64,000 nucleotides of DNA from an uncultured Verrucomicrobiae bacterium. Lineage in GTDB: Bacteria > Verrucomicrobiota > Verrucomicrobiia > Limisphaerales > Palsa-1400. Below are positions 5,395-33,466 of the stretch, piece by piece (within the stretch, counting starts at the first letter, position 1; each line of letters opens with the position of its first letter). The DNA is taken from positions 96,001 through 160,000 of the forward strand of contig OY969763.1 in assembly GCA_963702845.1 (NCBI GenBank). Direction: 5' to 3'. Made by a program: the position numbers and the translations under genes. The notes under the pieces were generated by a model. That model was not told the origin of the DNA, did not search any database, and saw only the letters and a list, made by a program, of their open reading frames with translations.

Positions 5395-5466
5395 CTACTG
5401 CAATTTCACTGCAATTTGAAATGCTGCTCTGTGTTGCAGGAAGGCACTACTGCAATTTCACTGCAA
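5394..5466 (+). repeat. 21-nt direct repeat, candidate integrase arm sites of a neighbouring element
   Basis: ACTACTGCAATTTCACTGCAA at 5394-5414 and 5446-5466, each holding two ACTGCAA units, ~60 bp outside the att repeat. Confidence 0.7.
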
Positions 5467-5704: not shown

Positions 5705-5844
5705 TGATGTCCAGTTTGGTGTCCGAAATGGTGTCCGTTTTTCCGGATCGGAATTGTCGGTTCGCAACAGTTGGCTAAACGCGACGACTTTTTCTAACCG
5801 TTCACTTGCCGTTGAAGCCCGTTTTGGTGTCCAAAATGGTGTCC
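5705..5844 (+). promoter_or_regulatory. Integrase arm-type repeats, left end
   Basis: TGATGTCC 5705, TGGTGTCC 5717, 5729, 5825, 5837; 12-bp period; same motif at 54095 and 54107. Confidence 0.75.
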
Positions 5845-6966: not shown

Positions 6967-7093
6967 CGGGCGCAAAAATGAAGATGGAATCGCGCTACTG
7001 CAAGAAAACGTAAGAGCTTGCGTGTTTGATGGGCCGAAACGTTGATGAACGTCGGCTTGCTTCATGACTATTGTTTAAGAAACACTCGATCCC

Positions 7094-7963: not shown

Positions 7964-8045
7964 ATTGACACGCGCGTTGGATGGTTGGTTTTGTTCGCAG
8001 ATGCGCTGCTGGCGCTAGAGGCTAGACGCTGGTAAAGGTCAAGCC

Positions 8046-13978: not shown

Positions 13979-14200
13979 GGTAAGCCACGAAATTAGAACG
14001 AAGGCCGAAAAATCGATCGATGTGCGTGCATCCGTCACGCGTAATGCTTTTTGAGAGAGATGCAGCTGTACTGCCGGCGCTGGAGGCCACGTGCACGAAA
14101 AGGAAATAGCCGCCGCGCCGGTCGCACTTTGCAATGCAGAGAGCAACGGTGTTTCGAGAGTTGCAGGATGGCGGTGTTAGGCTCATCGTTTGTCGCGATT

Positions 14201-15517: not shown

Positions 15518-16039
15518 AAAAAGACAGGCACTCCTGTCTTTAGGGGAAAAGATCCGCTCACGTGAGAACTGGTGGCTTTATCCAGCCGAACCAGACGTCG
15601 AGGGTTTCTTGGGCACTGATCCAATTTTCATTGTAGGTGACCAACCATCTACCGCCGCGTGGGAGTATGAGCATCCGCATCGGCGTGCCTTTTATGATTG
15701 CTTGTCACATTGGGCGCTGGCGGTTCGCACTTAACAGACGTTTACAAACGCCGAGGGTTCTCGGGCGAACTGCGAAACGGGCTACCGGATGACTTTGATG
15801 AGCATCTGGAAATATTCCGTGAGGAAGTGAAACTCCTCAACCCAACAACAATCTTGGCATTGGGTCGGGACGCTTATGGACTTCTGCTGAAGCATACGCC
15901 TTACTTAACCAACCGGATCATGCGCGTATGGCATTTCGGAACTGTGCGGCACGGCAAGCTTGAGGAATTTCAGGCGAGACTGCGACACGGAATCGTTACC
16001 GCGCGGCGTAGAATGAAGCTTGGGAGAAACGGCGATTGA
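15504..16039 (+). pseudogene. Uracil-DNA glycosylase-like protein split by a 1-nt frameshift
   Basis: FIVGDQPS in first frame; HLTDVYK, EVKLLNPTTILALGRDA, VWH in second; shift near 15698. Confidence 0.65.
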
Positions 16040-16121
16040 GTTGATCCAAGGCATGGTGTCGGTTATCCGCTGCCGGCGCTAGAGGCTGGGTGCATGAAAA
16101 TGTAATACCCTCGCTGCGGCC

Positions 16122-16658
16122 CTAGTCCGTTTTGGGTTGCACGGGAATTGGGTTCAGACGAACCTTCTTATATATCTTATCCCACTCGATTGGTTTTATC
16201 GGTTGTAGAAAGTTTTTAAAACAAATCTCGAGCGCAGTTTTCATCTCTGGCTCACGTTGCAATATCGCGAGACTGAATTCCGCTCTGATAGCAGAGTTTT
16301 TCGTCATAGCCAACCTCTGCAGGGCTTCCGCTCGAACCTCGTTAAAAATCCGAACAGCATTTGCAGAAGGTAGTTTGTTTACCGCCGCGAACTCTGTAGC
16401 TGACATGCGAAAACGGAATTCATATTTGCCGATGCGCACCAAGGTGCTCCTAAGGTGTCGTTCGATGAAGTTTGCTGCCTCGATTTTTACCTGCGCCGCA
16501 TACTTTTTCCCCAAACTCCCATTGAATATGTCAAACGATCTGATCCTGAGTTCGTAGGAACCACCGTTGGGATGCGGTTCGGAAAACGATTCTCGGTAGT
16601 GGGCCTTTTGGGTTTTGTCCTGACGATTGTGATCTTCGCGCTGGAACTTCCAATCCAT
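16122..16658 (-). CDS. Hypothetical protein
   Basis: 178-aa ORF filling the gap; no motif. Confidence 0.5.
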   Translation of the reverse strand: MDWKFQREDHNRQDKTQKAHYRESFSEPHPNGGSYELRIRSFDIFNGSLGKKYAAQVKIEAANFIERHLRSTLVRIGKYEFRFRMSATEFAAVNKLPSANAVRIFNEVRAEALQRLAMTKNSAIRAEFSLAILQREPEMKTALEICFKNFLQPIKPIEWDKIYKKVRLNPIPVQPKTD

Positions 16659-16766
16659 GTTGGGAGGCTAGTTGACACGAGAACAAAGAGTCGAGAGTTG
16701 AATTAGGCGGCTGCGGGCTCACTGCAAACGCGTGTTGCCCGATGCCCCAACAAGGCCTAGCATTCG

Positions 16767-17678
16767 GTGCAGATAACTATGACTGCGGCAGAATTGTTGG
16801 AGAAATTGGGTAAGGTGACAGTCTGGAAACGCGGAGGTGAGCGTGCTCCGCACAAGCCGCTCTTGATCCTGTTGGCAGTCGGGCGGATTGCGCAAAACAA
16901 GCCCAGGTTGATGCGGTTCGCTGAGGTCGAGGAACCGCTCCGGCAGTTGTTGATAGAGTTTGGTCCCCGCAGAAAATCATATCACCCGGAATACCCGTTC
17001 TGGTATTTGCGCAATAATGGCATTTGGGAAATTCCTGATGCCGGAGATGTGGCCCTTAAAAAGAACCATCGAGACCCAAAGCTTGATGATATTCGAAGAT
17101 TCAGCGGCGGATTTTTACCCGAGGCCTACGAAGTTCTGCACAAACATCCAGGATTGCAAAGGGAGGCGGCCACGGAAATCTTGAAGGCGAATTTCCCAGA
17201 TTCTCTTCACGAGGAAATTCTCAGCGCCATCGGAATTAGTCGCGAAGATGCGGAAACGAAGCGCAAGAAGCGCAATCCAGAATTCCGCTTGCTGGTAATG
17301 CGTGCTTACCAGCACAAATGTGCGATATGCGGATTCGATATGCGATTAGGAGCGTCCGGTTTGGGTCTCGAAGCGGCCCACATTCAGTGGCATCAGGCAG
17401 GTGGCCCGGATAGCGTAGATAACGGCCTTTGTCTTTGGACCATGCATCATCATCTTTTTGACCGCGGGGCGTTCGGGCTCACGAATAGAGGACAAATTGT
17501 GGTCAGCGAAGAAGTCCATGGCTCCAGCGGGATTGATGAATGGTTGCTCCGCTTCGAAGGACAGCGACTAAAGAAGCCACAGCGGGAGAGCTATCTTCCT
17601 AAACAAGAGTTCATGGACTGGCACCGGACGGAAGTATTTAAATCACCAGCGCGCGAAACGCTTAAGGCCGGCGTTTAG
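16767..17678 (+). CDS. SBD-HNH endonuclease (phosphorothioate-DNA-binding restriction nuclease family)
   Basis: RAPHKPLLIL and YPFWYL sulfur-binding-domain motifs; FRLLVMRAYQHKCAICG, LEAAHI, NGLCLWTMHHHLFDRG HNH motifs. Confidence 0.85.
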   Translation: MQITMTAAELLEKLGKVTVWKRGGERAPHKPLLILLAVGRIAQNKPRLMRFAEVEEPLRQLLIEFGPRRKSYHPEYPFWYLRNNGIWEIPDAGDVALKKNHRDPKLDDIRRFSGGFLPEAYEVLHKHPGLQREAATEILKANFPDSLHEEILSAIGISREDAETKRKKRNPEFRLLVMRAYQHKCAICGFDMRLGASGLGLEAAHIQWHQAGGPDSVDNGLCLWTMHHHLFDRGAFGLTNRGQIVVSEEVHGSSGIDEWLLRFEGQRLKKPQRESYLPKQEFMDWHRTEVFKSPARETLKAGV

Positions 17679-17693
17679 GAAATTAAGAGAGTC

Positions 17694-18956
17694 ATGCAGG
17701 TTCATTTTCAACACTGGGATTACGAGATTCCGAGCGATTTACTCATGCGCTACGGCAGCCCGTTCTTTTCGAGGCCAGATGCGGGTGCGGCGTTAAGAGA
17801 GGCGCTAATACGCGGGGCTTCCCTCGTAGGGACTCACTCAATCCCAATTCGAGAGGCGCAGGTCATATGTTGCAACGAGGCTTTTCCGGAAGCCGCAGTG
17901 GCTGACCCTTTGGCTGATTTGCGCGTGTGGACTGAGTGGGAGAATGGGCATCGTGTGTTTCCATACCCCGGCCGTTTCAGCCGGCTCGGTCTAACCAAGC
18001 AGGAGGGAAAAACCTCCAGCCCATCGAGTGTCGGGGTCCTTGGCGAAATTCTTGCAGGTATATTCGCGCAATCGTTCATCGCGCCGCAGGTGTTGGTGCG
18101 TTGCATTCGTCATTGGCCGGACTTTATTTTTTATGCTGGCGGTGACATTTACTCATTCGTCGAATCGAAGGCGTTTACCGGTGCTTCTAAAGGGAACAAA
18201 TTGGTAGATCGCGTCCCTGATCCGCTGATTCGCGATGCGATGTGCGATGCAGTTCAGCAGTTAAATGCAGATCCACACCTGGAGATTTGGAGTTCTTTCA
18301 CTGGTGTCGTGGAAATTGACCCAGCTTTTTCGGTGACTGTAACAATGTTGCGGCTCTTTCCTTCGCAACAGCGCCGCAACGCAAACCCTCGGGCTATCTT
18401 ACCGCAACCGGTGGTGCGTGGAGTCGCTGAACGTGCGGTTGCGCTAGCGGCGCTCGGTCTTTCGGCAGAAGAGCTCCAGCTGCTCGGTAGCAAGGCTGGA
18501 AAGGGATTGTATTTCGTGCCGGGTACGAGAATTACGAAGGAAGATTTGCAGCGACTTGTACGCACGAATGCGTTAAAACAGGCCGAAATCGTGTTGGCAG
18601 AAATGGCTCAAGACGCAGCCGTCAGTGGATCGCGTCGGGACATCGAATCTGAGATCGAGCTTTTGATCCGAAACTATCGAGTGAATGAGTCATCTGTCGG
18701 AAAGCGATTTTTTGAGATTAAGCAAGGGGGCGAATTATCAGTCCTCCAGCGGGTGAGGAGAGCCGCTGATGAGTGGATATTCATGGCAAACTTAGCGGGA
18801 ACTGACCTCGCCCGCTTTGAAGCAAAGTGGCACGCGGATTGGAGTAAAGCGGGTGAGCCTGCGACGACCATTGATGGCCATGGCGCGTGGCGAGCTGGCG
18901 GCGCGGCGTACGTGTTAGGGCCAGCGAATATTGAAGGTTCCCCCGTTTTGCTTTGA
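17694..18956 (+). CDS. Putative PD-(D/E)xK nuclease, unclassified
   Basis: GVLGEILAG...WPDFIF...FVESKAF fits E...PD...ExK geometry. Confidence 0.65.
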   Translation: MQVHFQHWDYEIPSDLLMRYGSPFFSRPDAGAALREALIRGASLVGTHSIPIREAQVICCNEAFPEAAVADPLADLRVWTEWENGHRVFPYPGRFSRLGLTKQEGKTSSPSSVGVLGEILAGIFAQSFIAPQVLVRCIRHWPDFIFYAGGDIYSFVESKAFTGASKGNKLVDRVPDPLIRDAMCDAVQQLNADPHLEIWSSFTGVVEIDPAFSVTVTMLRLFPSQQRRNANPRAILPQPVVRGVAERAVALAALGLSAEELQLLGSKAGKGLYFVPGTRITKEDLQRLVRTNALKQAEIVLAEMAQDAAVSGSRRDIESEIELLIRNYRVNESSVGKRFFEIKQGGELSVLQRVRRAADEWIFMANLAGTDLARFEAKWHADWSKAGEPATTIDGHGAWRAGGAAYVLGPANIEGSPVLL

Positions 18957-18967
18957 TCATATCTAAG

Positions 18968-20098
18968 ATGATTTACCTCGATCACAATGCCACGACGCCT
19001 GTAGCACCGGAAGTTGTCGAAGCAATGATGCCGTATCTGACGGCTGAATGGGGCAATCCGTCGAGTAGCTACAAATTTGGAGCAAAGTTAAAATCAGTTG
19101 TCGAGGCAGCGCGGGGCCAGGTAGCTGAACTGCTGGGCGCGAACCCGGGCGAAGTGCTTTTCACGTCTTGCGCGACGGAAAGTAACAATGCTGCGATTCA
19201 CGCCGCGCTCAAGGCAAACCCTGGGAAGCGGCATATTATAACGTCGGCGGTCGAGCATTCATCCGTGCTTAATTACTGCATTGCGCTGGAAAAGGAGGGT
19301 GTCAAGGTCACCTACTTGCCTGTGGATCGCGAAGGTTTGCTCAAGATCGCAGACCTGGAAGCGGCGATCTCCGATGAAACGGCTGTGGTGTCGCTGATGT
19401 GGGCAAATAACGAAACTGGCGTCTTATTCCCATTACCGGCAATTGCTGATGTGTGTAAAGCGCGAGGCGTATCATTCCACTGCGATGCGGTTCAGGCTGC
19501 GGGCAAGGTGGAGATCAATTTGCAGAAGGTCCCAGTCGATTACCTATCGGTGACTGGACACAAATTCGGCGCGCCTAAAGGAATCGGGGCGCTATTTGTG
19601 CGTCGCAAAGTGCCATTCTCGCCGCTAATCCACGGCGGACATCAAGAGCGAGGACGTCGCGGAGGCACGGAAGCGATGCCGTTGCTGGTCGGCTTGGGCA
19701 AGGCGGCAGAACTGGCGCGCAAGAAACTGTCTGATTATAACGGGCTGGTCCGCCCGCTCCGAGACGCATTGGAGTGCGGGATTCTGTCTTCGGTTCCCTA
19801 CACAGAGTTAAATGGTCACAAGATCCATCGCCTTGCGAATACCACAAATATTACCTTCCAAGGCATAGAATCTGAGGCGTTATTAATGTTATTAGATCAG
19901 GAAGGAATTTGTGCTTCGTCGGGTTCAGCGTGCTTAGCTGATTCGAGCGAGGCGTCCCATGTTATCAAAGCCATGAAGCCCGACACACGCTCTTCACGTC
20001 AGATGGTTCGATTTTCTTTCGGGTGTCAGCATTCAGAATTGGACGTGGAACAAACCCTCGCTAAAATAAATACCGCCGTAAGCGCCTTGCGCCCATGA
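18968..20098 (+). CDS. dndA: Cysteine desulfurase (DndA/IscS-like)
   Basis: IYLDHNATT, GNPSS, HCDAVQ, GHKFGAPKG (PLP lysine), SSGSAC; symbol assigned from dnd context. Confidence 0.88.
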   Translation: MIYLDHNATTPVAPEVVEAMMPYLTAEWGNPSSSYKFGAKLKSVVEAARGQVAELLGANPGEVLFTSCATESNNAAIHAALKANPGKRHIITSAVEHSSVLNYCIALEKEGVKVTYLPVDREGLLKIADLEAAISDETAVVSLMWANNETGVLFPLPAIADVCKARGVSFHCDAVQAAGKVEINLQKVPVDYLSVTGHKFGAPKGIGALFVRRKVPFSPLIHGGHQERGRRGGTEAMPLLVGLGKAAELARKKLSDYNGLVRPLRDALECGILSSVPYTELNGHKIHRLANTTNITFQGIESEALLMLLDQEGICASSGSACLADSSEASHVIKAMKPDTRSSRQMVRFSFGCQHSELDVEQTLAKINTAVSALRP

Positions 20099-20117
20099 GC
20101 TTTGCTGGTGGAGTGCA

Positions 20118-21395
20118 TCATGTTATTAAGCCACCCATGCCAATCAATTTCTCTTTCAGTGTATTTTGCATCACGCCAAGCTTTTCGATCTCCTTGGGGG
20201 TGAACATCTCCGCTCTAAATTTCGCGTATAGGTCGTTTTGAATTCCGCCACCACCGGTTTTCGGCGGGTTTGCCACGTCGTCGGGCGGAGCCTTGCGCCA
20301 TCTTTCCACTACAAGCTTATAGCTGTCCATCAACTGTTCGGGTCCGCCTGCCAAGAGGATGTCGTCGTGCAAGATCCGCATGATTACGGCAACCCCATTA
20401 TTTTTCCACAGGAGGGATCTTGAATTTGCAAATTGATCAACCAATGCAGCCTGAATAGCGCGAATGTACAGAATAAGTAGCGACGCGCATCCTGCTGGAT
20501 CAGATTCTTTGAAAAAGCTGTAGAGTAGTGGCAAAACTTTTAAACGGCGTGTGAAGGTTTTGGGTTCAACTAGGGCTGCTAAGTATTCGACGACTGCTGC
20601 CTGCGAGATGAGGCCGACATCTCCGGGCCCTCGCATCTTGATCTTGGCCTGCCACGGGGACTCCTCGAAGCGATTGAGGATGCGCGCCACGTGACTGCAG
20701 AACCGTGAAACTGCCATTAGTCCTTCGTAAAGTTTTTCGTCTTTCGTCCCGCCGAGTGGAGCATACCCAAACAGGTCAAAGATAATCGATCTGTTAACCG
20801 GCTTCTGCCGGCCGTTGATAACGGCAAAGATCTCGGCCTGTTGGTAGAATGGTATTTCCACGAGGAATGTCACGACAACGCTCATTCGGCTGCGGATTTC
20901 ATTTTTCAGGTATCGAAATCCTTCAACCCGATGTTGTCCGTCTAGAATAACCGCTGATTTCTCCTCTCTCGGCAACACGATCGTTAGGTGGCCGTTGGCA
21001 CCGGATTTGATGATTTCGGGCTCATCAAAGCCAAGGTCAACGGCCAGAATTATCGAATTGGGGAGAAGGGCATCCGGTTGTTCAAGATACTCAGCAATCT
21101 TTTGCGCTCTCTTAGCATCGACGAAGCGCTGGTATTGTTGTCGGGGTTCTTCGCTCAAGAGTTCCTCGGCTCGGCGTTGAAATTTTGGCGAATCGAGCGC
21201 GCTAATCAGCTTATCTAGTTGGTCCTCTTTCAGTTCAACCGGTTGGAACGATTCACGCGCGAATACGCCCGTTTCGACTGGCTTATAGAGCGGGCGGCAA
21301 ATGCATAGCAGATCGTTTACGGGGACGGTTGCCACGTAGAATGTTGCCGCAGGCTGAGAAACGCGAAGAATAGGTGCTCGGAATGGTATTTTCAT
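20118..21395 (-). CDS. DGQHR-domain protein (DndB-related)
   Basis: YQR, LPNSIILA, ILDGQHR, FAVINGRQKPV. Confidence 0.9.
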   Translation of the reverse strand: MKIPFRAPILRVSQPAATFYVATVPVNDLLCICRPLYKPVETGVFARESFQPVELKEDQLDKLISALDSPKFQRRAEELLSEEPRQQYQRFVDAKRAQKIAEYLEQPDALLPNSIILAVDLGFDEPEIIKSGANGHLTIVLPREEKSAVILDGQHRVEGFRYLKNEIRSRMSVVVTFLVEIPFYQQAEIFAVINGRQKPVNRSIIFDLFGYAPLGGTKDEKLYEGLMAVSRFCSHVARILNRFEESPWQAKIKMRGPGDVGLISQAAVVEYLAALVEPKTFTRRLKVLPLLYSFFKESDPAGCASLLILYIRAIQAALVDQFANSRSLLWKNNGVAVIMRILHDDILLAGGPEQLMDSYKLVVERWRKAPPDDVANPPKTGGGGIQNDLYAKFRAEMFTPKEIEKLGVMQNTLKEKLIGMGGLIT

Positions 21396-22225
21396 AACGT
21401 GCCAGCCCTTTTTTCTCCGTTTCCGAGCTTTCCTTTCAGCCTTTCCTTTACTTCGTCCGTATCTTCTCTCGAAAGAGCGTCACCCAGTGGTGCTGGGCCG
21501 CTTGCTTCAGTAGTAATAGCCACTTCTGGACCAGGCGGAGCCGTTTCTTCACCAAGTTTTGTCCGTAACTTCGCCTGAAGCTGGTCAATGTCAGTTAGCG
21601 CTTTCTCGAGAACAGCTCGGGTGCTGTCAATTTCTGATTCATGCTGGCCCGCTCGCCGCGCACTTTTTTCCGCGTCGTCAGCTTGCTCTTTAGCTTGCGT
21701 CCGAATCTTCTCGAGCTCCTTAACGGCTTTATCTCGGAAGTCTTCCCATTCCGCACGCCATTGCGCGTCGGCCCTAGCAATACGTTTGCGATACTCATCA
21801 TTGAAGTCGCGGAGACTTTTGAATGCAAACCAACCGACGACGCCTGCTCCCAGACTCACGATGCTTGCCAGAATTCCGATCCACCAGCCAAAGCCTTGAA
21901 AGACGCTCGCTACTTTATCGACGGTCTTATTATTCGCTTCGACCGCATCCTTAAATAAAAGGTGCGTGTCTTCTTTTTTTGGAGCCAACTCGCTGGCAAT
22001 CGTTGCGGTAGTTTGTGTGGTCTGTTTTTCCAGCATAGCCAACCGGGCTAGCAGTTGCTTCCAATCTGCTTCAGTAGAGGGACTGCTGGCCTTCGTCGGT
22101 GGTAATGCAGCAGGCGATATTTGTGGCTTCAGTGGTGGCGCGGCCGCAGGGTTCGTCGGTTGAGCAACAAGGAAATGACAATTCAATCCTATGGCTACAA
22201 CCGCTAAAGATTTTAACAATTTCAT
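21392..22225 (-). CDS. Signal-peptide, single-TM, coiled-coil membrane protein
   Basis: Signal-like N-terminus, TM GWWIGILASIVSLGAGVVGWF, charged coiled coil; ATGA-coupled to DGQHR gene. Confidence 0.8.
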   Translation of the reverse strand: MKLLKSLAVVAIGLNCHFLVAQPTNPAAAPPLKPQISPAALPPTKASSPSTEADWKQLLARLAMLEKQTTQTTATIASELAPKKEDTHLLFKDAVEANNKTVDKVASVFQGFGWWIGILASIVSLGAGVVGWFAFKSLRDFNDEYRKRIARADAQWRAEWEDFRDKAVKELEKIRTQAKEQADDAEKSARRAGQHESEIDSTRAVLEKALTDIDQLQAKLRTKLGEETAPPGPEVAITTEASGPAPLGDALSREDTDEVKERLKGKLGNGEKRAGTL

Positions 22226-22271
22226 TGTTTCCCAAATTTGTTTTTCGTTTACGAATTCTGAAGCCGTCAGC

Positions 22272-23831
22272 TCATTTTCCTATGCTGTCGGGCTTCCAAC
22301 ACTTTATTCGCATAGCCTGCCTGCCAGGCAATTTGGCGAAAGCAACGCCGGTTTCCAAATATGCGTCACCGAACTCTTCTGCCTGCAATTTCCTTCCATA
22401 CACACCCTGTAGTGAACGCAAGCCACGTTGGGTTTGGTTACAATAAAATGAAATGACCGCGCCAAGTTGGGTGGTGAAGTCGTAACTCTGGCCTTCAAAA
22501 TCGCTTGGGTCTTGAGACAGCAGCATCACAGATAAACCCTTGGCGGCGCTTCGTGTAACTAACTGGACAATCGATTCCGATTTTTTTTCCTGCAATATTT
22601 TGCGGGCTTCATCAATAACCACAACTTGTCGCATTTGTCGAAAACCACCGCGTAATGGCGCTTCAGACAAGGCGAGAAAGTGCATCGCCGTGGCATCCAG
22701 CAATAACAACATGACCAAGCGCTTCAATTCTTCAGATTTTATATGCTGTAGGCTGACAACCCACGAGCGGGAGAAGAAGTCTGCAGCCGTCATGGTTGGT
22801 GCGAAACAGCGAAGACGTGTAAGCTCGTCCAACCGCGCGGCAATGCTGTCAATCACTTCACCGTCAATTTGTAAGCGCTGTTCGTATGTTTCCTTAATTG
22901 AGGAGAGGCTGCGATCATCACCCGTGGTAATCACTTGTTCGATAGACTGCAGGAGTCGAGACTGCATTAAATTGCCAGGAGATTTACAGCAAAGGCAAAT
23001 GCTGTCGCGCAGAGTCATTGATGCATTTTGAACGGCTACATGGCCAACGTGAGGACTGGGCAAGAAGTCTAAAGGGATTGGGTGCAGCCCAACCTCTATT
23101 GGCTGTATCTCGACTGGCCAGGCGGGAAATTTATCATTTAATTTTCCGTCAGTGATAAAGGTGCCTTGGGGATCAATCAGCAACATCGGCGCGCGTGATT
23201 GCTCAACAATGCTTTGCGCCATCTGGATGCCGGTTGTGGTTTTACCGCTTCGGGTTCTTCCCATTAGTGCCAGGTGGGGAGAATTGCCCGGGCCGTTTAA
23301 ACAAAAGTCAACGGGCTCCTTGCTGTCGAATGTTTGACTGACAGGGCCGATTTTCACCCTTATTTCGCCGGGGTGCGCACTGCCAGTAACGTGAGGCGCA
23401 GTTCCTCCTCCGCTAACTTCAGGAAGGAATTCAGCCAATTTAGTAATGAGCCGTGCTTCGTCGCCGCCACAATCGTCCCAATCCTGCTTTATCAGTTTTG
23501 CGCCCCGGGCCCAGTGCGCTTCAATGTGCGGACGCAAATGTTCAACGGCCGCGCCTTCGCTGATATTCGCATCAAGAATTAGAGCGCACAACCAGAGGTC
23601 AAGATCGTCGCCAAAAAGGAGCTCACCAGGCAACGGTTTGGCATATTGGGTTTCCGACGACAATGCTGGCGGCGGGGTTGGGTCGGCAAGCGATCGGCCG
23701 ATTAGTAAACGAGCGGCATCATAACGATGGGAAAGGCCAAATTTTGTGCGAAGCTTTTCCTCAACCTCGAACGCCTCCTGGCTCGGTTTGAACAACCCTT
23801 TCCAAACTGCTTCTTTGAATTCAATATTCAT
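22272..23831 (-). CDS. DndE-like domain fused to HerA/FtsK-type ATPase
   Basis: N-term ARLLIGRSLADPTPP...LFG...EAHWARG (DndE-like); C-term PHLALMGRTRSGKT, LLIDPQG, VVIDEA, LLSQDPSDF. Confidence 0.75.
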   Translation of the reverse strand: MNIEFKEAVWKGLFKPSQEAFEVEEKLRTKFGLSHRYDAARLLIGRSLADPTPPPALSSETQYAKPLPGELLFGDDLDLWLCALILDANISEGAAVEHLRPHIEAHWARGAKLIKQDWDDCGGDEARLITKLAEFLPEVSGGGTAPHVTGSAHPGEIRVKIGPVSQTFDSKEPVDFCLNGPGNSPHLALMGRTRSGKTTTGIQMAQSIVEQSRAPMLLIDPQGTFITDGKLNDKFPAWPVEIQPIEVGLHPIPLDFLPSPHVGHVAVQNASMTLRDSICLCCKSPGNLMQSRLLQSIEQVITTGDDRSLSSIKETYEQRLQIDGEVIDSIAARLDELTRLRCFAPTMTAADFFSRSWVVSLQHIKSEELKRLVMLLLLDATAMHFLALSEAPLRGGFRQMRQVVVIDEARKILQEKKSESIVQLVTRSAAKGLSVMLLSQDPSDFEGQSYDFTTQLGAVISFYCNQTQRGLRSLQGVYGRKLQAEEFGDAYLETGVAFAKLPGRQAMRIKCWKPDSIGK

Positions 23832-23837
23832 GGCTTC

Positions 23838-25907
23838 TCAAAAAAAGAAACGATTCGGGTGAACAATGGACCGCTTGTCGGATTCAACGAATTCAACAAG
23901 GAACTTCTGGCAAACGTGTTCTTCAATGTGTTCGAGCAGGTCATGGGTTACTTCGCGATCGTGAGTCAGAACGATAACCTGATCGCAGTCGAAACGGCGC
24001 AGGGCATCAAGTGTGCGCGGACGGTATTTGGAATCTGCGTTGCCCAAGGGAGTATCAATCACCAACGGCACGCGTCGGCGAGTGATTTCCGCCAGCGCTA
24101 ATGAAAACGCAATTCCAAATGATCGCCGTTCGAATCCGCTCATGGAACTTAGCAATGCTTTAGGGCTGCGGCCGTCAAAATGCAGATGCGGCTCACCGTC
24201 GTGGGTAAATGCGACGCGTCCGCCTTTGAATCGCTGGTCAGCGATAGCGAGGAAATGTTTTGTCACATGCTCTTCTAGTCGCTGTGTTGTCACTGGCTTG
24301 AGTTGTTCGGTAAGCGCTTCGACAGCGCGCGCTACACGGTCAGCCACAGCAATTCGCCGCTGTTCGGGCTCAAGTCGTGCCAGTTCTTCGCGCAACCGAC
24401 CAATCTCAGCAGATAAATCCTGATAATCGGCTTTCCATTTCTTGATTTCATTTTCCGCGGTAGAAATGCGGCGGATGGCTTCGTCCATCTGCTCGTCGAG
24501 GCGTTTGATACGCTCTGTTAAAGTCTTAGTTTCTTCAGATTGATTACCAAGCCGAACATGCCGCGCCTTGGCATCTTCAAAGCTTTCACGAGCGTCGCGT
24601 AACGTTTTTGCCACAGCGCGAACGTGATCAAAGGCGAAACTTTTGGTTTCATTAAGGCGGTTGAGCAATCGCGCACGTTGTTGACCGCGAATATGACCAA
24701 GCACAAAATGCTCTGCGGTATCAGGATCTGGTGGTTCGTAAATAGCCTGTAATGCAGTCAAAATCCTTTGCTTAACTTTTTCGCGCGTGTCTGCGGAGAT
24801 GTTGCCAAGCAACGGATCTCGATCTGGTGGCTCAGGCATGGCCTCCGCCAAAACCCTCTCCCGCTTGTCGAGCGTTCCCTGCCGCAGGTTTTCGTATTCT
24901 TCGCGCAGTTGTTCTTTGCGCAAACGCCGCCTAATTGAAGGATCCAGTCGGCTCACTGCGAGCACCAACCCGATTTGATTTGCAAGCTCGGTAACTGCTG
25001 CTTCGGCAGAGATTTTTTTGGCTTCGGCATCCTTGAACGCTTTATTGACGCGTTCAGTATCAGCAGCCCCGCCACCACCGGCGCGAACTAAATCATCACG
25101 ACGTTGGTTGCGTTCTCGATCCAACTCGTCTCGTTGCTGGTTTAATTCTTCCAGCTCACCTTCACGCCGGCCAATAAGTTTGTTGAGTTCGGTTTGACGG
25201 CTGATTTTTTGATTTAGAATTTCCTGTTTCTCGGAAGTTTTTTGCTTTCCGCCCAATGCCCCGTGAGATCGGGTGAGGTAGGTTCGAACTTGACTCTGTA
25301 ATTCCGATAATATGCTTGCGCCGAACATGGTGTTGACTGCCTTGCGGATACCCTCTTCCCCAGCGCCTTCAATCAGCGCTTGTGCTTGTTCGCCATCAAA
25401 GAAGAATGCCGGGCACACATGGGCAGGAAATAGTTCTTTCTCGATACGCTCGTTAGCAAGAATTGCTTCCATACGCCGAACGATTCGATCGCCAACATGG
25501 ATTTCCAATTCTTCAAATCCATCACCTATGCGGGGGGTATTTGCGCTTGTAAAATACCACCGGCGGATAATTCGCACCTCCTGCTCATCCCGATCATTCA
25601 AGGTTGGCGTAAAAGTGATATCAATCACGGTCGGCTCATCAGGGTCGGCGGTAGAGCGCCGGAATTTGGCGATAGCCTTACGGTAGGAGTTGATGTCGTT
25701 TTCGGCGATGGTACGAAAGCCTTCACAATGCCGTAGTCCGAAAGAGCCAAACAGGCCGAGATACAGTGAGATTAGGAAGCTGGTTTTGCCATGGCCATTC
25801 ATCGCCCCGATCAAAACAACGGGGCGTCTTTCCGTCGGACGTTTGAAGTCAAAATTCGCGTCTGAGTAACTACGCCAGTTGGTCAAATGAAGTTTCGATA
25901 AATACAT
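23838..25907 (-). CDS. dndD: DndD, SMC-like ABC ATPase
   Basis: GAMNGHGKTS, FFFDGE, long coiled coil, MSGFER, VIDTPLG, LTHDRE. Confidence 0.88.
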   Translation of the reverse strand: MYLSKLHLTNWRSYSDANFDFKRPTERRPVVLIGAMNGHGKTSFLISLYLGLFGSFGLRHCEGFRTIAENDINSYRKAIAKFRRSTADPDEPTVIDITFTPTLNDRDEQEVRIIRRWYFTSANTPRIGDGFEELEIHVGDRIVRRMEAILANERIEKELFPAHVCPAFFFDGEQAQALIEGAGEEGIRKAVNTMFGASILSELQSQVRTYLTRSHGALGGKQKTSEKQEILNQKISRQTELNKLIGRREGELEELNQQRDELDRERNQRRDDLVRAGGGGAADTERVNKAFKDAEAKKISAEAAVTELANQIGLVLAVSRLDPSIRRRLRKEQLREEYENLRQGTLDKRERVLAEAMPEPPDRDPLLGNISADTREKVKQRILTALQAIYEPPDPDTAEHFVLGHIRGQQRARLLNRLNETKSFAFDHVRAVAKTLRDARESFEDAKARHVRLGNQSEETKTLTERIKRLDEQMDEAIRRISTAENEIKKWKADYQDLSAEIGRLREELARLEPEQRRIAVADRVARAVEALTEQLKPVTTQRLEEHVTKHFLAIADQRFKGGRVAFTHDGEPHLHFDGRSPKALLSSMSGFERRSFGIAFSLALAEITRRRVPLVIDTPLGNADSKYRPRTLDALRRFDCDQVIVLTHDREVTHDLLEHIEEHVCQKFLVEFVESDKRSIVHPNRFFF

Positions 25908-25910
25908 AGA

Positions 25911-26114
25911 TCACAGGTTTGGTCTGCGTTCCAGGAAACGGTCAATACAACCAGCAATATCGGCATCCACACCGTCTTTGCGTCCGGCGCCTGAATGCGC
26001 TTGCATGACTTCGCAGAGGTCTTTTAAGAGAGCCATATCTATTTGCGTCTCACGGCAAAGATTCTGGATAAGCTTTTTTGTTTCCTGATCTTCAAAGGCT
26101 GGTAATGGTCTCAT
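25911..26114 (-). CDS. Small Dnd-associated protein, resembles detached DndC C-terminal helices
   Basis: LIQNLC...LLKDL...HSGAGRKDG...I between dndC and dndD. Confidence 0.65.
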   Translation of the reverse strand: MRPLPAFEDQETKKLIQNLCRETQIDMALLKDLCEVMQAHSGAGRKDGVDADIAGCIDRFLERRPNL

Positions 26115-26134
26115 TCGATTTATCACTTCTTTTT

Positions 26135-27247
26135 TTAAGCGTTCATTTCACGCAGAATGTCCTGTGTCTGGTCCTTCTCCCACTGTTCCCGGATTAGACG
26201 CACTTCATGCTCAGTAATTAACGGTTCGTTGGTTTGTTCGCGAAGAGCGATTAGCTCACCAAGGAGCATCTGGCGAACTTCTATCGTTAATGGGCCAAGG
26301 CCAGGCTGCCCATTGCGCCGGATTTTGCTGCGACAATCAGGCGTTTCCGAAAGTTTCTTTAATCGGTCTCGAAATTTGGCAAGAGGCTCAAGATATTCGT
26401 GCCCATTGTCTATGAGAGCATCGAGCGAACGGTCTTTTTCGATCACAGTGCATGTCCAACAACCAAACCGAGCCGAGGAAGTTCCGCAGGACGGTGCATC
26501 GCCGGTTGTCATGACAAACGGACATTCGCCGCCACTGGCATCTTTGTAGAGTGATATCAGTTCCTGATATGTCCCCCCCCAAGGCGGACGATTTTGTTTG
26601 AGCGTAATCCAAACGTCATCATTCGTGAGTTCTTTAAGTGGCGAAAACACCCAAACACCCTTGTGATCGGGGTGCGGGGCTAAGCGGTCTCCGGAACCAC
26701 CTTCATTTCTGGATATGCTGCCTGCACGGGCTGCCGACTCAGACCGCCTTACTCCGAGCAGCAAAACAGCTTCGTCATTTTCGCTTACGATCTCACGGAT
26801 GAATCGCGAAGTAGGACGAATCTTCATCCGGTCGGTGCACCATCGAAAGGTCCGATTCGGTGCTGGGTACCCCTTGCCCAGCAAATTCACCCAAAAGCTT
26901 TCCTCTGGAAGTGGATTTGTCCGAATAATTTTGACCGGCACGTTTAACGGTTCGAGGTTGTCTTCCAGTTGAGAAAGCAGCCGATCAACGAAATTTTGAA
27001 ATACAGGCGACTCAACAAGGGTGTTATTGCTTACAACATAGACGGCGCGCTTGCGGTCATCCGGAGCAACCTGCCTGATGGCCTCCATCACAAGATGCAA
27101 TAGGAGTGTTGAATCTTTCCCCCCGGAAAACCCAATAATCCACGGCTTACCGTGCGGCTGGAGATACTCGTCTCTTAGCTCACGGCGGATGGCTTTAAGC
27201 TTTTCAGCGTATACTGTGCTCGGTGATTCTAGCAGTTCTGTTTGCAT
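26135..27247 (-). CDS. dndC: DndC, PAPS-reductase-family sulfurtransferase
   Basis: PWIIGFSGGKDS, NTLVE, FWVNLLGKGYPAP, RWCTDRMKI, GVRRSES, RFGCWTCT. Confidence 0.95.
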   Translation of the reverse strand: MQTELLESPSTVYAEKLKAIRRELRDEYLQPHGKPWIIGFSGGKDSTLLLHLVMEAIRQVAPDDRKRAVYVVSNNTLVESPVFQNFVDRLLSQLEDNLEPLNVPVKIIRTNPLPEESFWVNLLGKGYPAPNRTFRWCTDRMKIRPTSRFIREIVSENDEAVLLLGVRRSESAARAGSISRNEGGSGDRLAPHPDHKGVWVFSPLKELTNDDVWITLKQNRPPWGGTYQELISLYKDASGGECPFVMTTGDAPSCGTSSARFGCWTCTVIEKDRSLDALIDNGHEYLEPLAKFRDRLKKLSETPDCRSKIRRNGQPGLGPLTIEVRQMLLGELIALREQTNEPLITEHEVRLIREQWEKDQTQDILREMNA

Positions 27248-27544
27248 TGTTCAGACTACTGCCGAGTAGGAAAACAGACTATCGAGCATGCCATTGTTTG
27301 CCGAGGCTCAGTTAAGGTGCAAATCATAGGGTGAGGCTACCGAGAAAAGGGTGGGATGGGCAAGAGGCATGGTTGATAAATGCAAATCGTAGTCGCATCT
27401 TCCTCCTTGTCTTTTTTTGCCCTCGTGTTGCCGAGATCCAGTTGCGATGACTTTTTTCAAAAGTGAGATGCTTAAGATTGGCGGTGCCGGCGCTAATGGC
27501 AAGCGTTTGCTATTCCGACGTGTTCGCACAGCGCGATACGAGTA

Positions 27545-28621
27545 CTAATATGCGACCTCATAGCGTCGAGCGAGGCTAGTGGCCGTTTTCTGAACGTTGG
27601 CGGCCAATTCTGCGGGCCGCACAACATAGGCGTGGGTGCCCCAGCTTAGGATCCAGCGTTCGATTTCTTCGAGGCCGCTGAGGCGCATGCGCATTTGGGA
27701 ACCGCCGCATGGCAGCTCGGTCACGACCTGGGTTGGATGCCATTTTCGGCCGCGGAGTTGGTCGGTTGCAAAGGCGTCGAATTCGATCACGACTTCGTAA
27801 TCACCGGTGCCCTTCATAACACCGAAACTGCCGTCGAGATATTTGTCTGGATCGAAGTCCTTTGGTTTGGTGAACGGGTCACCGAGGCGCGGATTGGTTA
27901 TTCTGCCCAAGACGAAGGTGCGGACGTCGGACCGATCGATGTCGTATGCGATCAGATACCAACGGTTGTCGATGCAGGGCAAGTGATACGGATGGACGTG
28001 ACGCGACTCGGCGGTTTTTTGTCCAGGTTTGCGGTATTCGAATTTGAGCGCGCGATGATCCTGCAGCGCGCGCGTCACGATCTGGAAGATTTCGATGTCT
28101 GTGTCTTCTGGTGCGAACGGACGGAACGAAAGCGCCTCCTGCATGTTTTCCGCCGTGTATCGTTCCTTTCGATCCAATTGGCCGGTTAGCTTTGCGAACG
28201 CCATCAGCAGCGGTTGGTAAAATGGCGTGCCTTTGTATTGTTCGATTGCCTTGTGCGCGACGAGGAGCGCGAAGAGTTCGGATTCAGTGACCTTTACAGA
28301 GCCGGGGAATTTGTCGACGGGTTTGGAATAATAAAAGCCGTGGCGGTTGCGGTCGTATTCAATGGGCAAGTCAAAGTGGTCGCGCATGAATTGGAGGTCG
28401 CGTGCAACGGTCTTGTTTGAAACTCCCAGGTCAAACGCGATGCTTTGCGCGTTCGGAAGTTTGCCTGCTGCGATCAGTTCGTGAATGCGGAGAATTCGCT
28501 CCATGGGTTCTCTTCGGAGTTTTACAGGGCGCATGCTGCGATGGCCCGCGCGTGTGAGGGAGTGTTCACGAATTTCGGAGACTGCGGGTTTGTTATTTTC
28601 GTATTCTTTTTGAATTTTCAT
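27545..28621 (-). CDS. HTH-WYL-WCX transcriptional regulator
   Basis: VSNKTVARDLQFMRD HTH; RHVHPYHL...RWYLIAYD...RTFVLGRI WYL; WILSWG. Confidence 0.92.
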   Translation of the reverse strand: MKIQKEYENNKPAVSEIREHSLTRAGHRSMRPVKLRREPMERILRIHELIAAGKLPNAQSIAFDLGVSNKTVARDLQFMRDHFDLPIEYDRNRHGFYYSKPVDKFPGSVKVTESELFALLVAHKAIEQYKGTPFYQPLLMAFAKLTGQLDRKERYTAENMQEALSFRPFAPEDTDIEIFQIVTRALQDHRALKFEYRKPGQKTAESRHVHPYHLPCIDNRWYLIAYDIDRSDVRTFVLGRITNPRLGDPFTKPKDFDPDKYLDGSFGVMKGTGDYEVVIEFDAFATDQLRGRKWHPTQVVTELPCGGSQMRMRLSGLEEIERWILSWGTHAYVVRPAELAANVQKTATSLARRYEVAY

Positions 28622-28640
28622 ACCGCAAGCGTAGCAAAGT

Positions 28641-28665
28641 CACTTGGACAAAGGCTGTCCAAGTG
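28641..28665. promoter_or_regulatory. Perfect inverted repeat, candidate WYL operator
   Basis: CACTTGGACA-N5-TGTCCAAGTG, 20 bp upstream of the WYL ORF in the divergent intergenic region. Confidence 0.75.
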
Positions 28666-28794
28666 AAACTTATCCAAAAAAGGGGTGGTTAAGGCCTAAG
28701 GGCACTGAGCGAAAAGGAGTTACACATGATGTTGAATATTGTAACTGTCAAATATTCTGTGCAAAATGACAGACGAAGTAAGTGATTCCAAATT

Positions 28795-29604
28795 TTGAAA
28801 ACGAAATCTGCAAAAGCCGAATTGGAGCGACTCATTTGCGAAAATGCGGAACTAAAAGATAAAGTGGGTCGGTTGGAGTCTGCACTGTCAGGTACTGGAG
28901 GTAACCCCGCAAGGTACGATTTTGAACAGGCCCTGGCTCACAGGCTTCGCACACGAATGTTGGCGCTGGAATGCTTAATCTATGCAATCGGCATTCCAGA
29001 AGATGAACGAAGCACCGTTTTTGATACTGTACACGATTTAAGGCGCATTACAGACAACTTCATGAATCTTACCTTGGCAAACGAGATGAGATTTGAGGAA
29101 ACGACACTGATTGGTATTTTGCGGCGTGCGCTAAAACCACTCACAAGGCCGGACGCTCGGATTACTGTTAACGGCTTCTCTTTGGAGACTTATCCTGAGA
29201 AAAAGGATCAATACGAATTAGTGGCGGACAAGGCAAAACTCGCCGATGTGTTTTTTGAACTGGGCACCAACTCACTGAAATGGGCGCGAAAGTCTCCACA
29301 TGAAATCAAAATATCAGTTGACCAGGTCACAAACGGGTCTGCGGCTGACCGTCCGAAACGAGATGCTTCGCGGAGGTTTAGGATAGTTTTCGAAGACTCT
29401 GGTCGTGGTGTAACTGCTTCAATTAAACCAAAGCTGTTTCAGCCATTCGTCTCTGGTGCACAAGGCGGAACAGGGCTCGGACTCGCGATCGTAAATGAAA
29501 TTATTCGGTCTCACCATGGGGCGATTAAGGAGACTGGAGCCCCAGATCAGGGCGCGCGTTTCGAGATAATTCTCCCGATCGACCCCAGAAAACCTTCGAT
29601 GTAA
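28795..29604 (+). CDS. Soluble histidine kinase with no sensor domain
   Basis: H-box-like LAHRLRT, N-box ELGTNSLK, DSGRG, LFQPF, GTGLGLAI; start uncertain. Confidence 0.82.
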   Translation: MKTKSAKAELERLICENAELKDKVGRLESALSGTGGNPARYDFEQALAHRLRTRMLALECLIYAIGIPEDERSTVFDTVHDLRRITDNFMNLTLANEMRFEETTLIGILRRALKPLTRPDARITVNGFSLETYPEKKDQYELVADKAKLADVFFELGTNSLKWARKSPHEIKISVDQVTNGSAADRPKRDASRRFRIVFEDSGRGVTASIKPKLFQPFVSGAQGGTGLGLAIVNEIIRSHHGAIKETGAPDQGARFEIILPIDPRKPSM

Positions 29605-29606
29605 CT

Positions 29607-30740
29607 ATGGCTGACCGACATCTTATCTTGGTAGTAGATGATCATCGTCCAACCGCGATTGCGCTCAAGAAGGTGCTTAACAACCGCAAGCCTAGCTGGG
29701 AGATTCTATTGGCTCACAGTGTCGAAGATGCGAAGCAGACAATCGAAACTCACCATTTAGATGCAGTCGTCACCGACTGGAGGTTAAATGAGCAGGACCA
29801 AGGTCAAACTGGCTTTCAAGTTGTTGAAGCTATGCATAGGAGGGATCCATGGTGTGTCAGTATCCTGATAACTGGGTATCCAGAAGCTTTGACCGGGTAC
29901 GAAAAAGCATTCCCGATGTCCGTTTATGATTGCATATCAAAGAACGCAAGAGGCGTAGTAGTTGTTGACGAACTTTGCATAAAATTGGACGCCGCTCTTA
30001 AGAGAAGAAGAGCACACCAAGATGCCAATTTTTACGCCAGGCACATCGATCACAGGCTTCGTCTGTCCTTTGGAACCACGTTGGACAAATCGCGGATAAC
30101 GTCGCGATGGCTGACTATCATGTTTACCGATATCAGGGGATTCTCCGCGGTTGCCAATCAATTGCGGACCGAAAAGGAGATGATTGCCGATTTCCTCCAG
30201 CAACTCTACGCCGCCACTGTGGATTGTGCGCACAAGCACGACGGCATAGTTGATAAGTTTATGGGCGATGGGGCCATGCTGTTATTTGGTGTTGATGATG
30301 ATGATAATAGTTCCAAAAATCGACGTCATACGAAGAATGCAGTGCGAGCAGCGCTTGATTTGAGGAAACGTTGTGGGCCGATTATTGAAAGTTTTAGAGA
30401 GCAGGCCGCTGGAATGCATGCTGCACAAATCGCAGGCTTAGATTTGGGAATTGGAATCAATACTGCGGAGGTGTTAGTCGGTATAATAAAGACCGAACTT
30501 CGGGATCAGTTTACGGCTTTAGGACATGGCGTGAATCTCGCGCAACGTTTTGAAAGCATCGCTGGAAAGTCCAGCAGTCCAAACGCAAAACACCGTTATG
30601 GCAATATTCTAATCACGTCAATGGTAGAGAGCCGTATCCGTGGCGATTTTGTAATTAAGGTAGAACCTTCGCTTGCAAATCTGCGCAATATAAATGAGCC
30701 CCATGATGTTTGGAGTGTGGTGCGCGAAGTCGAACGGTAA
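29607..30740 (+). CDS. Receiver domain fused to class III nucleotide (adenylate) cyclase
   Basis: REC: VVDD, VTDWRL, ITGY, ISK; cyclase: FTDIRGFS, DKFMGDG, GIGINT, FTALGHGVNLAQR. Confidence 0.9.
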   Translation: MADRHLILVVDDHRPTAIALKKVLNNRKPSWEILLAHSVEDAKQTIETHHLDAVVTDWRLNEQDQGQTGFQVVEAMHRRDPWCVSILITGYPEALTGYEKAFPMSVYDCISKNARGVVVVDELCIKLDAALKRRRAHQDANFYARHIDHRLRLSFGTTLDKSRITSRWLTIMFTDIRGFSAVANQLRTEKEMIADFLQQLYAATVDCAHKHDGIVDKFMGDGAMLLFGVDDDDNSSKNRRHTKNAVRAALDLRKRCGPIIESFREQAAGMHAAQIAGLDLGIGINTAEVLVGIIKTELRDQFTALGHGVNLAQRFESIAGKSSSPNAKHRYGNILITSMVESRIRGDFVIKVEPSLANLRNINEPHDVWSVVREVER

Positions 30741-33418: not shown

Positions 33419-33453
33419 ACGCGGGGCAGTGCAACAACTGCCCCGCGTTTTTT
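33419..33453 (+). terminator. Intrinsic terminator
   Basis: ACGCGGGGCAGT-loop-ACTGCCCCGCGT followed by a T run. Confidence 0.75.
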
Positions 33454-33466
33454 GAAAGGAAATTTT

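Follow-up and report, generated by a model that had tools for sequence, protein, structure and literature searches.

The Dnd locus and its PT writer

The 64,000-nucleotide (nt) stretch of DNA analysed here (the window) covers positions 96001-160000 of a single 6.03-Mb contig from an uncultured Verrucomicrobiae bacterium and contains, at 16767-28621, ten open reading frames (ORFs) related to Dnd systems of DNA phosphorothioate (PT) modification. Seven genes on the minus strand, in the order WYL regulator, dndC, 71-residue ORF, dndD-like gene, dndE-ATPase fusion, membrane protein and DGQHR-domain protein, face three converging plus-strand genes for a sulfur-binding domain (SBD)-HNH endonuclease, a 420-residue protein and a cysteine desulfurase. 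The ORF list and three profile libraries (Pfam, PADLOC and NCBIfam) bear out these families and this order, which had been given in an initial annotation of the locus as a variant PT system. We consider it fairly probable that the locus is a PT module of the DndE-HerA/FtsK-fusion type without DndFGH, accompanied by three accessory modules whose roles, like all functions beyond family membership, we infer from sequence.

The PP-loop sulfurtransferase gene dndC (26135-27247, minus strand; 370 residues) is present in a single copy in the genome. Its product scored 341.5 bits against TIGR03183 (cut-off 290.4) over model positions 9-361 of 447, matched the PADLOC DndC model over positions 6-376 of 481 (1.3e-113) and contains an SGGKDS PP-loop in its translation, but it falls short of the family model by ~100 residues at the C-terminus. 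The conserved 71-residue ORF between dndC and dndD (25911-26126, minus strand) matched PADLOC DndC models at 405-455 of 481 (E 4e-4 and 1e-3) and NF005316 at 406-456 of 505 (E 0.0084); these E-values are weak (4e-4 to 8e-3), and the positions agree. It also matched PF20306 Sp-DndD (E 0.0017, below cut-off). Because the ORF aligns with the DndC models at about 405-455 while the window's DndC ends at about 376, it probably represents the C-terminal part of DndC, stably split off as a separate ORF.

The following gene encodes a 689-residue DndD-like ABC/SMC-type ATPase (23838-25907, minus strand), which by its sequence is clearly related to DndD, although its TIGR03185 score of 224.9 bits falls just below the equivalog cut-off of 245.85; PADLOC DndD matched over the full length (5.7e-71). 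DndFGH and PbeABCD are the expected partners of a Dnd writer, and PADLOC 'PbeC' models also scored this protein (1.3e-81). A PbeC identity was rejected, as the translation has no CxC motif and no PbeA was found: none of the ten proteins of the locus is an HKD or superfamily 2 (SF2) helicase, the search for PbeA having been confined to these ten. The next product (22272-23831, minus strand; 519 residues) is DndE fused to a HerA/FtsK-type P-loop ATPase, as in DndEi. Its DndE part was recognised by PF08870 at residues 16-117 (23.8 bits, below the gathering score of 25) and its HerA/AAA part lies at 174-455 (PF01935, 25.9 bits). Among the candidates scored, 312 relatives were found at E <= 0.001, and many of them carry PF08870 together with PF01935 or PF12846.

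On the opposite strand, the NifS-like cysteine desulfurase DndA (18953-20098, plus strand; likely true start the ATG at 18968) scored 269 bits against PF00266 and 2.1e-142 against PADLOC DndA. Its scores against TIGR03402 NifS (514 bits) and TIGR03235 DndA (370 bits, cut-off 480) both lie below the respective cut-offs. Its translation contains the GHK motif with the pyridoxal phosphate (PLP) lysine and the SGSAC motif with the catalytic cysteine. All of the writer motifs examined are intact in the window: the DndC PP-loop and cysteine cluster, the Walker A motifs of DndD and of the fusion, and the PLP lysine and cysteine of DndA.

For comparison, 40 genomic loci were fetched around relatives of the fusion protein, mostly from Verrucomicrobiota and Planctomycetota metagenome-assembled genomes, and were searched by tblastn with the window proteins and by phmmer on crude gene calls (individual loci carry an L number below). 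The core order dndC, small ORF, dndD and dndE-ATPase recurs across these fusion-centred loci. Both dndC and dndD are present in 19 of the 40, and 17 of those 19 have the small ORF; the two that do not are loci in which an SBD-HNH-like gene is inserted. A dndA gene was found in 17 of the 40, either convergent, which is the usual case, or nearby. Synonymous divergence (dS) between the window and L002, the closest syntenic locus, is saturated for six of seven genes, so that only non-synonymous divergence (dN) is usable, and for the writer genes it amounts to 0.10-0.20 (dndC 0.19).

Judged by its genes, the writer is of the known DndE-HerA/FtsK-fusion (DndEi) type, with a split DndC and its 71-residue ORF, a DndD-like ATPase and a NifS-like DndA; family membership comes from homology and the roles from the Dnd literature. 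In the pathway that we propose, DndA would supply sulfur, DndC would act as the PP-loop sulfurtransferase with its C-terminal piece provided as a separate protein, and the DndD-like ATPase and the DndE-ATPase fusion would find and open the target sites. The fused ATPase had been assigned in the initial annotation to a restriction or surveillance arm. DndE with an extra ATPase/helicase domain (DndEi) is reported in a review to be needed for PT in Riemerella (PMC6435447), and fused DndE ATPase domains are placed in the HerA/FtsK clade (PMC10853773). Given this reported requirement, and since the fusion is conserved with dndC and dndD in nearly all related loci, the ATPase is better read as part of the writer than as an effector.

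The arrangement resembles that of the DndEi systems of Riemerella anatipestifer, Flavobacterium and Kordia, in which a DndE N-terminal domain joined to a P-loop ATPase follows a dndD-like gene and is accompanied by dndC and a cysteine desulfurase; the likeness to Riemerella is one of described gene and domain arrangement. The window differs from these systems in its split DndC, in the 3' DndB-family gene with its membrane partner, and in the two nuclease genes on the dndA strand. The earlier statement that DndFGH is not recognisable held for DndH: the PADLOC DndH model, run against the whole 6.03-Mb genome, gave a single match (E 1.1e-8), which is the ATPase domain of the fusion itself, DndF and DndG not having been searched for separately.

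A 420-residue nuclease-like protein encoded upstream of dndA

The 420-residue protein encoded upstream of dndA (17694-18956, plus strand) represents an unnamed PD-(D/E)xK nuclease-like family with no match in Pfam, PADLOC or NCBIfam. At least 125 relatives at 30-59% identity are all unnamed and without Pfam domains. The family is rare: a full HMMER scan returned 191 members at E <= 0.001 among 1.84 billion representatives, and of 401 genomes from the phylum it occurs in two only, one of them the window's own. In 25 of 25 aligned members, E118, P142-D143, E157 and K159 are invariant. The full AlphaFold model has a predicted local distance difference test score (pLDDT) of 84.5 and a predicted template modelling score of 0.85, and the model of the core (residues 104-236) has a pLDDT of 88.9. 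E118, D143, E157 and K159 fall on the first helix (core residues 8-25) and on the second and third strands (41-46 and 49-59), as they do in the PD-(D/E)xK superfamily.

Fold comparison of the core matched Hjc (1gef; Z 6.8, root-mean-square deviation (rmsd) 3.2, 94 residues aligned), LHK-Exo (Z 7.2, rmsd 5.8, 112 aligned) and R.SwaI (Z 5.4), followed by a phage exonuclease, EcoRV, HsdR, a Cas4-family protein, VRR-NUC and cap-snatching endonucleases. By title, nucleases make up most of this list of 50 rows, and we take them to share the PD-(D/E)xK fold. The invariant motif and these matches agree with the PD-(D/E)xK call of the initial annotation. VIA fold matches of the whole model were weak, the best being PspGI at Z 7.4 on a helical part. 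The family profile found only a chance match among PDB sequences (E 0.73), and no entry titled DndI appeared in the PDB fold and sequence searches with this protein. In a language-model atlas its nearest neighbours were unnamed clusters, and the nearest named ones were type II restriction enzymes at 0.77-0.79, a similarity that serves as a lead only.

To place the family in its gene neighbourhoods, 47 loci of relatives were collected, 46 of them metagenomic and one a genome region, of which 24 were informative (at least 600 nt downstream). In 11 of the 24 the next gene, in the same direction, is dndA, and in 2 of the 24 it is dndC; of the 13 relatives that share at least 43% identity and have enough sequence downstream, 11 are directly followed by a co-directional dndA. 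The downstream start abuts or overlaps the stop codon of the relative (e.g., L051, L056 and L089), and in the window the stop lies at 18956 and the likely dndA start at 18968. These counts include near-duplicates (L045/L046 and L067-L069) and are therefore not independent. The Dnd clusters concerned are of two types, one resembling the window's, with DndC 62-64% identical, and one far more distant, with DndC 38-41% and DndD 22-23% identical. The expectation that accessory genes would co-occur with Dnd genes elsewhere was borne out for this family by the 13 informative loci with an adjacent dndA or dndC.

Several observations count against a nuclease arm built on this protein. Its nuclease activity is deduced from a motif and from middling fold scores: all nuclease matches have Z < 8, a range in which a common arrangement alone may explain the score, the single row with Z >= 8, at the head of the list (2qx2, Z 8.2), does not have a nuclease title, and Foldseek against the PDB with the full and core models returned nothing at E <= 0.001. 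Its linkage to Dnd genes is also incomplete. In 11 of the 24 informative loci neither dndA nor dndC is adjacent, and 9 of those 11 show no Dnd gene. A relative 38% identical to the window protein lies inside a BREX-like locus (L066:44-9730), and another (L077) lies near genes that read from their translations as type I restriction-modification (R-M)-like. Furthermore, the family is absent from all 40 fusion-centred loci. In L055, the relative is followed by a transposase-like gene. The relative in L066 stands between an Eco57I/MmeI-type (PglX-like) methylase and a 716-residue protein on one side and PglZ/BrxL on the other.

These observations bear on whether the accessory genes belong to the PT module at all. 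They could be independent defence genes gathered in an island, with the SBD-HNH and PD-(D/E)xK proteins standing alone and neither working with the writer. We consider this unlikely, although it would fit the relatives found with BREX and next to type I R-M genes, the 9 of 24 loci without a Dnd gene, the rarity of SBD-HNH genes beside dnd (PMC7461809) and the low-G+C 32 kb in which the locus lies, with its IS110 element, integrase, NERD, SLFN/AlbA-STAND-TPR and RmuC genes. It does not fit the dndA gene that comes next in 11 of 13 closer relatives, with abutting or overlapping starts and across two Dnd types with DndC identities of only 38-63%, nor the SBD-HNH gene of L002, conserved with the cluster in both place and sequence.

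The tight and often overlapping coupling with dndA in 11 loci could alternatively indicate that the 420-residue protein is itself a part of the writer, such as a nickase or a site-selection subunit acting with DndA, rather than an effector nuclease. There is a parallel in the Ssp system, where a dedicated nickase, SspB, is needed for writing. Such a role appears very unlikely to us, as the family is missing from all of the fusion-centred loci, most of which look complete, and as a relative occurs in a BREX locus without Dnd genes. Complex prediction for DndA and the 420-residue protein gave a score of 0.00, which is no evidence either way. From its absence in 40 of 40 loci it follows that the writer has no need of this protein, and the 9 of 24 loci without a Dnd gene, together with the relatives in the BREX locus and near type I R-M genes, indicate that the family is not PT-specific.

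We therefore read the 420-residue protein, which is linked to dndA in many loci, yet occurs with BREX or R-M elsewhere and is absent from the fusion-centred set, as a putative accessory nuclease that accompanies epigenetic marking systems and of which one subfamily has become locked to dndA. Within the locus it would be the best candidate for a nuclease arm, which could either cut DNA that does not carry the host PT mark or serve as a back-up effector that cuts indiscriminately.

The SBD-HNH endonuclease and the membrane protein-DGQHR pair

The first gene on the plus strand (16767-17678) encodes a 303-residue SBD-HNH protein of the PT-dependent (type IV) restriction endonucleases. It scored 341.2 bits against NF045808 (cut-off 180) over residues 9-292 of 303, and 44.5 bits against HNH_2 (PF13391). 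Its N-terminal part aligns with the sulfur-binding domain of ScoMcrA (5zmo, E 9.3e-10), with APHKP paired with ALHRP and EYPFW with RYPFW. The H-R/K and Y-P residues of the SBD have been identified as sulfur contacts (PMC6224610, PMC7461809), and the H-K and Y-P positions are kept in the window protein. By these sequence features it belongs firmly to the PT-dependent endonuclease family, and it is predicted to cleave PT-DNA. It would bind PT-DNA, and its probable targets for cleavage are DNAs with PT in sequence contexts that differ from the host's. The likeness to ScoMcrA, SprMcrA and EcoWI extends to the score above the NF045808 cut-off, the two contact positions and the HNH motif. The window's enzyme differs from these type IV enzymes in lying within a Dnd locus whose writer is apparently intact, and, unlike ScoMcrA, it has no SRA domain.

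The initial annotation had counted this gene as part of the system. In L002 the ortholog (72% identical, 358 bits) lies directly after dndA with no 420-residue gene between. L002 is the only one of the 40 fusion-centred loci with the gene at this position, which does not support the assignment as stated. With a dN of 0.21 relative to its L002 ortholog, close to the 0.19 of dndC, the SBD-HNH gene is not decaying and looks maintained beside an intact writer.

This coexistence counts against the favoured reading. SBD-HNH enzymes cut PT-DNA and adjoin dnd genes in < 3.6% of cases, and Lutz et al. do not expect them beside dnd clusters of the same specificity (PMC7461809). An intact writer beside such an enzyme is thus a paradox, which the favoured reading resolves by assumption only: coexistence in the window would probably need either different sequence specificities or tight control. 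In L005, L007 and L009, moreover, an SBD-HNH-like gene occupies the place expected for the small ORF and the N-terminus of DndD, and there writer and reader are incompatible. PT itself, finally, is predicted from the genes of the locus.

The SBD-HNH-like genes of these three loci lie between dndC and dndD (L005:7330-8229, L007:7800-8735 and L009:7833-8756) and score 73-113 bits against NF045808, below the cut-off. These loci lack the small ORF, and their DndD is either truncated at its N-terminus (527 and 439 residues) or replaced by a CoiA_N-like zinc-ribbon protein, so that these writers look as if they were broken by, or after, the arrival of a PT-reader nuclease. The window might likewise hold a writer and a reader that are not both active, with either the Dnd writer or the SBD-HNH enzyme silent or dead and the pairing left over from a conflict of a PT system with a PT-dependent restriction enzyme. 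Inactivity is among the explanations that Lutz et al. offer for the rare co-occurrence (PMC7461809), and the replaced small ORF and the cut or replaced DndD in these loci would fit. We regard this as highly improbable for the window itself, in which all motifs examined are intact (those of DndC, DndD, the fusion and DndA as well as the HNH motif and the sulfur contacts) and in which the amino-acid divergence of the SBD-HNH protein from L002 equals that of DndC.

At the 3' end of the minus-strand genes, two genes overlap by 4 bases, the stop codon of a 277-residue membrane protein (21392-22225, minus strand) overlapping the start of a 425-residue DGQHR-domain protein of the DndB/ParB superfamily (20118-21395, minus strand). 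The latter scored 120.5 bits against TIGR03187 (cut-off 58.85) and 44 bits against PF14072 DndB (cut-off 29.1), and the DGQHR pentapeptide is present in its translation. Its match to TIGR04172 is partial (127.6 bits against a cut-off of 450, model positions 42-216 only), and canonical DndB, TIGR03233, is not among its NCBIfam matches. Searches against PDB sequences gave only chance matches (E <= 1), and no fused nuclease domain was detected with Pfam, PADLOC or NCBIfam. With tblastn matches included, a DndB-family gene follows the DndE fusion in 12 of the 40 loci, and 10 of 10 position-equivalent proteins scanned downstream of the fusion gene are members of PF14072.

The membrane protein has a hydrophobic N-terminus, one transmembrane (TM) segment and a long, charged, helical tail that resembles a coiled coil, with hydropathy segments at 3-21 and ~105-136. 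These TM segments, like all others given here, come from a custom hydropathy script rather than a dedicated predictor, which reduces the weight that they lend to the favoured reading. Homology to LeoBC or ZorA was rejected, the PADLOC matches being weak (E 2e-5 to 7e-3) and confined to the coiled-coil and TM regions. The protein's sole homolog among the 40 loci is that of L002, at 28% identity and with the same layout of hydrophobic N-terminus, single TM segment and coiled-coil tail. Against L002 the pair evolves fast, with a dN of 0.33 for the DGQHR protein and 0.88 for the membrane protein, compared with 0.10-0.20 for the writer genes.

The position of a membrane partner is conserved more widely than its sequence: in 14 loci, the window included, the gene immediately before the DGQHR gene encodes a membrane protein, again in keeping with co-occurrence of the accessory genes with Dnd genes elsewhere. 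Among fusion-centred loci these are the window, L002, L003, L004, L005, L007, L012, L026 and L034, and in the last seven the partner has 139-179 residues (a larger ORF in L003) and several TM segments. In L001, L009, L014 and L036 the upstream partner is soluble, with a GIY-YIG-like motif seen by eye that no family match supports; L051 has a soluble 137-residue ORF, and the 136-residue ORF at this position in L053 may be a wrong-frame call by the crude caller.

The type of partner tracks the subtype of the DGQHR protein as given by its best NCBIfam model. Where TIGR04172 is the best model the partner is a membrane protein in 7 of 7 loci (the window, L002, L004, L005, L007, L012 and L034), and where DndB TIGR03233 scores higher it is so in 0 of 5 (L001, L009, L014, L036 and L051). 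As an independent sample, the five best full-length loci were fetched from TIGR04172 matches in 10 of 401 genomes; in all five, a protein of 166-199 residues with two to four predicted TM segments is encoded immediately upstream. One of these pairs, a 4-TM protein with a DGQHR protein in L105 (G190:C106:23287-40139, ~7953-10413), has no Dnd gene detected nearby and adjoins a 264-residue protein with a DPPY motif, a DNA methylase by eye only.

The documented role of DndB is regulation. The DGQHR protein, which the initial annotation had placed in the restriction arm, is a DndB-family member (PF14072) and as such would belong to or beside the writer, and is not obviously a restriction arm. We propose that the membrane protein and the DGQHR protein together close the writer operon and would most likely regulate or police PT levels.

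A distinct view of the accessory genes would make the locus a self-contained immune system with three arms, in which the 420-residue protein is a compact, PT-blocked restriction enzyme that replaces the three-protein DndFGH, the SBD-HNH enzyme polices PT in foreign contexts, and the membrane and DGQHR proteins form a split, membrane-anchored sensor-effector of the SspE/GmrSD type. The pair might then be a mobile two-gene module, found with Dnd clusters and, in L105, without a detected Dnd gene. SspE is a PT-sensing defence protein, as is DndI, described in 2024 (PMC11662687), and DGQHR/ParB/DndB-like domains are related to the GmrS (DUF262) domain of type IV enzymes (PMC4619093). SspE, GmrSD and DndI each have a ParB-like NTPase sensor, related to DGQQR/DGQHR domains, joined to a nuclease; the window's DGQHR protein is of the same superfamily, but its partner is a separate membrane protein, and elsewhere a soluble one. 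We think the three-armed system as a whole distinctly unlikely.

Relation to described systems and genomic setting

Rakesh, Aravind and Krishnan (NAR 2024) describe Dnd writers as commonly decoupled from DndFGH and list among alternative neighbours an HKD-helicase, a combination of winged helix-turn-helix (SBD), SAD and HNH domains (698 taxa), several restriction endonuclease (REase) families, and URI, HEPN and PIN nucleases (PMC10853773). In the same source, stand-alone REases encoded at cluster borders are proposed as possible suicide back-ups and DndB as a possible effector. The window resembles the neighbourhoods described there in its writer without DndFGH and in having, at the cluster border, an HNH protein with the PT-binding SBD and a putative stand-alone REase-fold protein; in the published neighbourhoods such proteins are sometimes encoded on the opposite strand. 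It differs in that the HNH form most often found there includes a SAD/SRA domain as well, while the window's consists of SBD and HNH only. The REases named in the relevant passages of that paper are NERD and HARE-HTH; the 420-residue family and the DndB membrane partner are not named in those passages, nor did a literature search find a description of either, and the supplementary dataset of the paper may list both.

The 'unrecognised effector set' of the initial annotation is accordingly new in its particular members but not in its idea, since Dnd writers paired with other nucleases had already been published (PMC10853773). Its novelty relative to described Dnd subtypes divides in a similar way: the writer is of the known DndEi type, whereas the 420-residue nuclease-like family and the pairing of membrane and DGQHR proteins are apparently undescribed parts within a published concept. 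Because the general principle is in print, the gain lies in new parts and not in a novel type of system.

The classical DndFGH partner is missing from more than half of known PT writers, and for such writers the locus offers concrete candidates for the restriction arm. The 420-residue family and the membrane/DGQHR pair may be the missing defence arm of this locus. The former, whose gene immediately precedes dndA in two divergent Dnd types, could be a restriction arm of one gene, and with the latter, DndB-family proteins would have a function that goes beyond the control of transcription. The locus is also a natural test case for a PT writer and a PT-dependent endonuclease that coexist in an operon-sized region.

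The loci compared here included a second, distant Dnd variant, in which a GHKL ATPase (HATPase_c_3) follows the DndE-ATPase fusion (L043:12205-17641, L078:1652-7177 and L023:11638-13239). L043 also encodes a Methyltransf_35 protein and an Mrr_cat nuclease, and L078 contains proteins that look alike by eye. A protein of ~525 residues with a C-terminal S-adenosylmethionine (SAM)-methyltransferase domain adjoins the Dnd cluster in L002 (15858-17438) and in L078 (3139-4707), with a hydrophobic N-terminus in L078. In L018, a kinase-like gene follows dndA.

The writer strand is headed by a 358-residue helix-turn-helix (HTH)-WYL-WCX transcription regulator (27545-28621, minus strand), with 73.1 bits against PF13280 and 51 bits against PF25583 WCX, in which a weak HTH_11 match (44-95) is followed by WYL (177-245) and WCX (274-350) domains, the domain order of regulators of the BrxR, CapW and PafBC type. 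A perfect 11-nt inverted repeat with a 5-nt spacer (28640-28666), 19 bases upstream of the WYL start, is a candidate operator. It is unique in the window, was matched in 0 of 100 shuffles and does not recur upstream of dndC; the WYL regulator may bind it. The regulator had been listed as the first gene of the cluster, but it does not travel with it, being present in 0 of the 40 fusion-centred loci. A WYL gene 34% identical to the window's lies near the 420-residue PD-(D/E)xK gene in L047. A promoter and terminator scan of 16000-29000 found fewer sites than in shuffles and was uninformative.

Upstream of the Dnd locus, the window encodes an IS110 transposase (1387-2313), a tyrosine integrase (5794-7065), a NERD nuclease-related protein (7094-7963), an 892-residue SLFN/AlbA_2, STAND NTPase and TPR protein (8046-10724), a 718-residue P-loop protein (11568-13724) and RmuC (14051-15517; PADLOC 'RTasRmuC', 1.1e-145). 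The G+C content of the first 32 kb is 0.49-0.53, compared with 0.54-0.58 beyond. On account of this low-G+C segment and the IS110, integrase, NERD, SLFN/AlbA-STAND-TPR and RmuC genes within it, we place the Dnd locus in a defence-island-like region. No att-like direct repeats flank it within 1-36000, apart from a local tandem pair of 21 nt at 5394/5446, and no tRNA was found near it. The two copies of this 21-nt sequence are exact, lie 52 nt apart (5394-5466) and precede the integrase gene. Divergent from the WYL gene, at 28795-30740, are a histidine kinase fragment (269 residues) and a fusion of a response regulator with an adenylate/guanylate cyclase (377 residues). Just beyond the G+C shift at ~32 kb, the window encodes a 282-residue PDDEXK_1 (PF12705) protein at 33452-34300.

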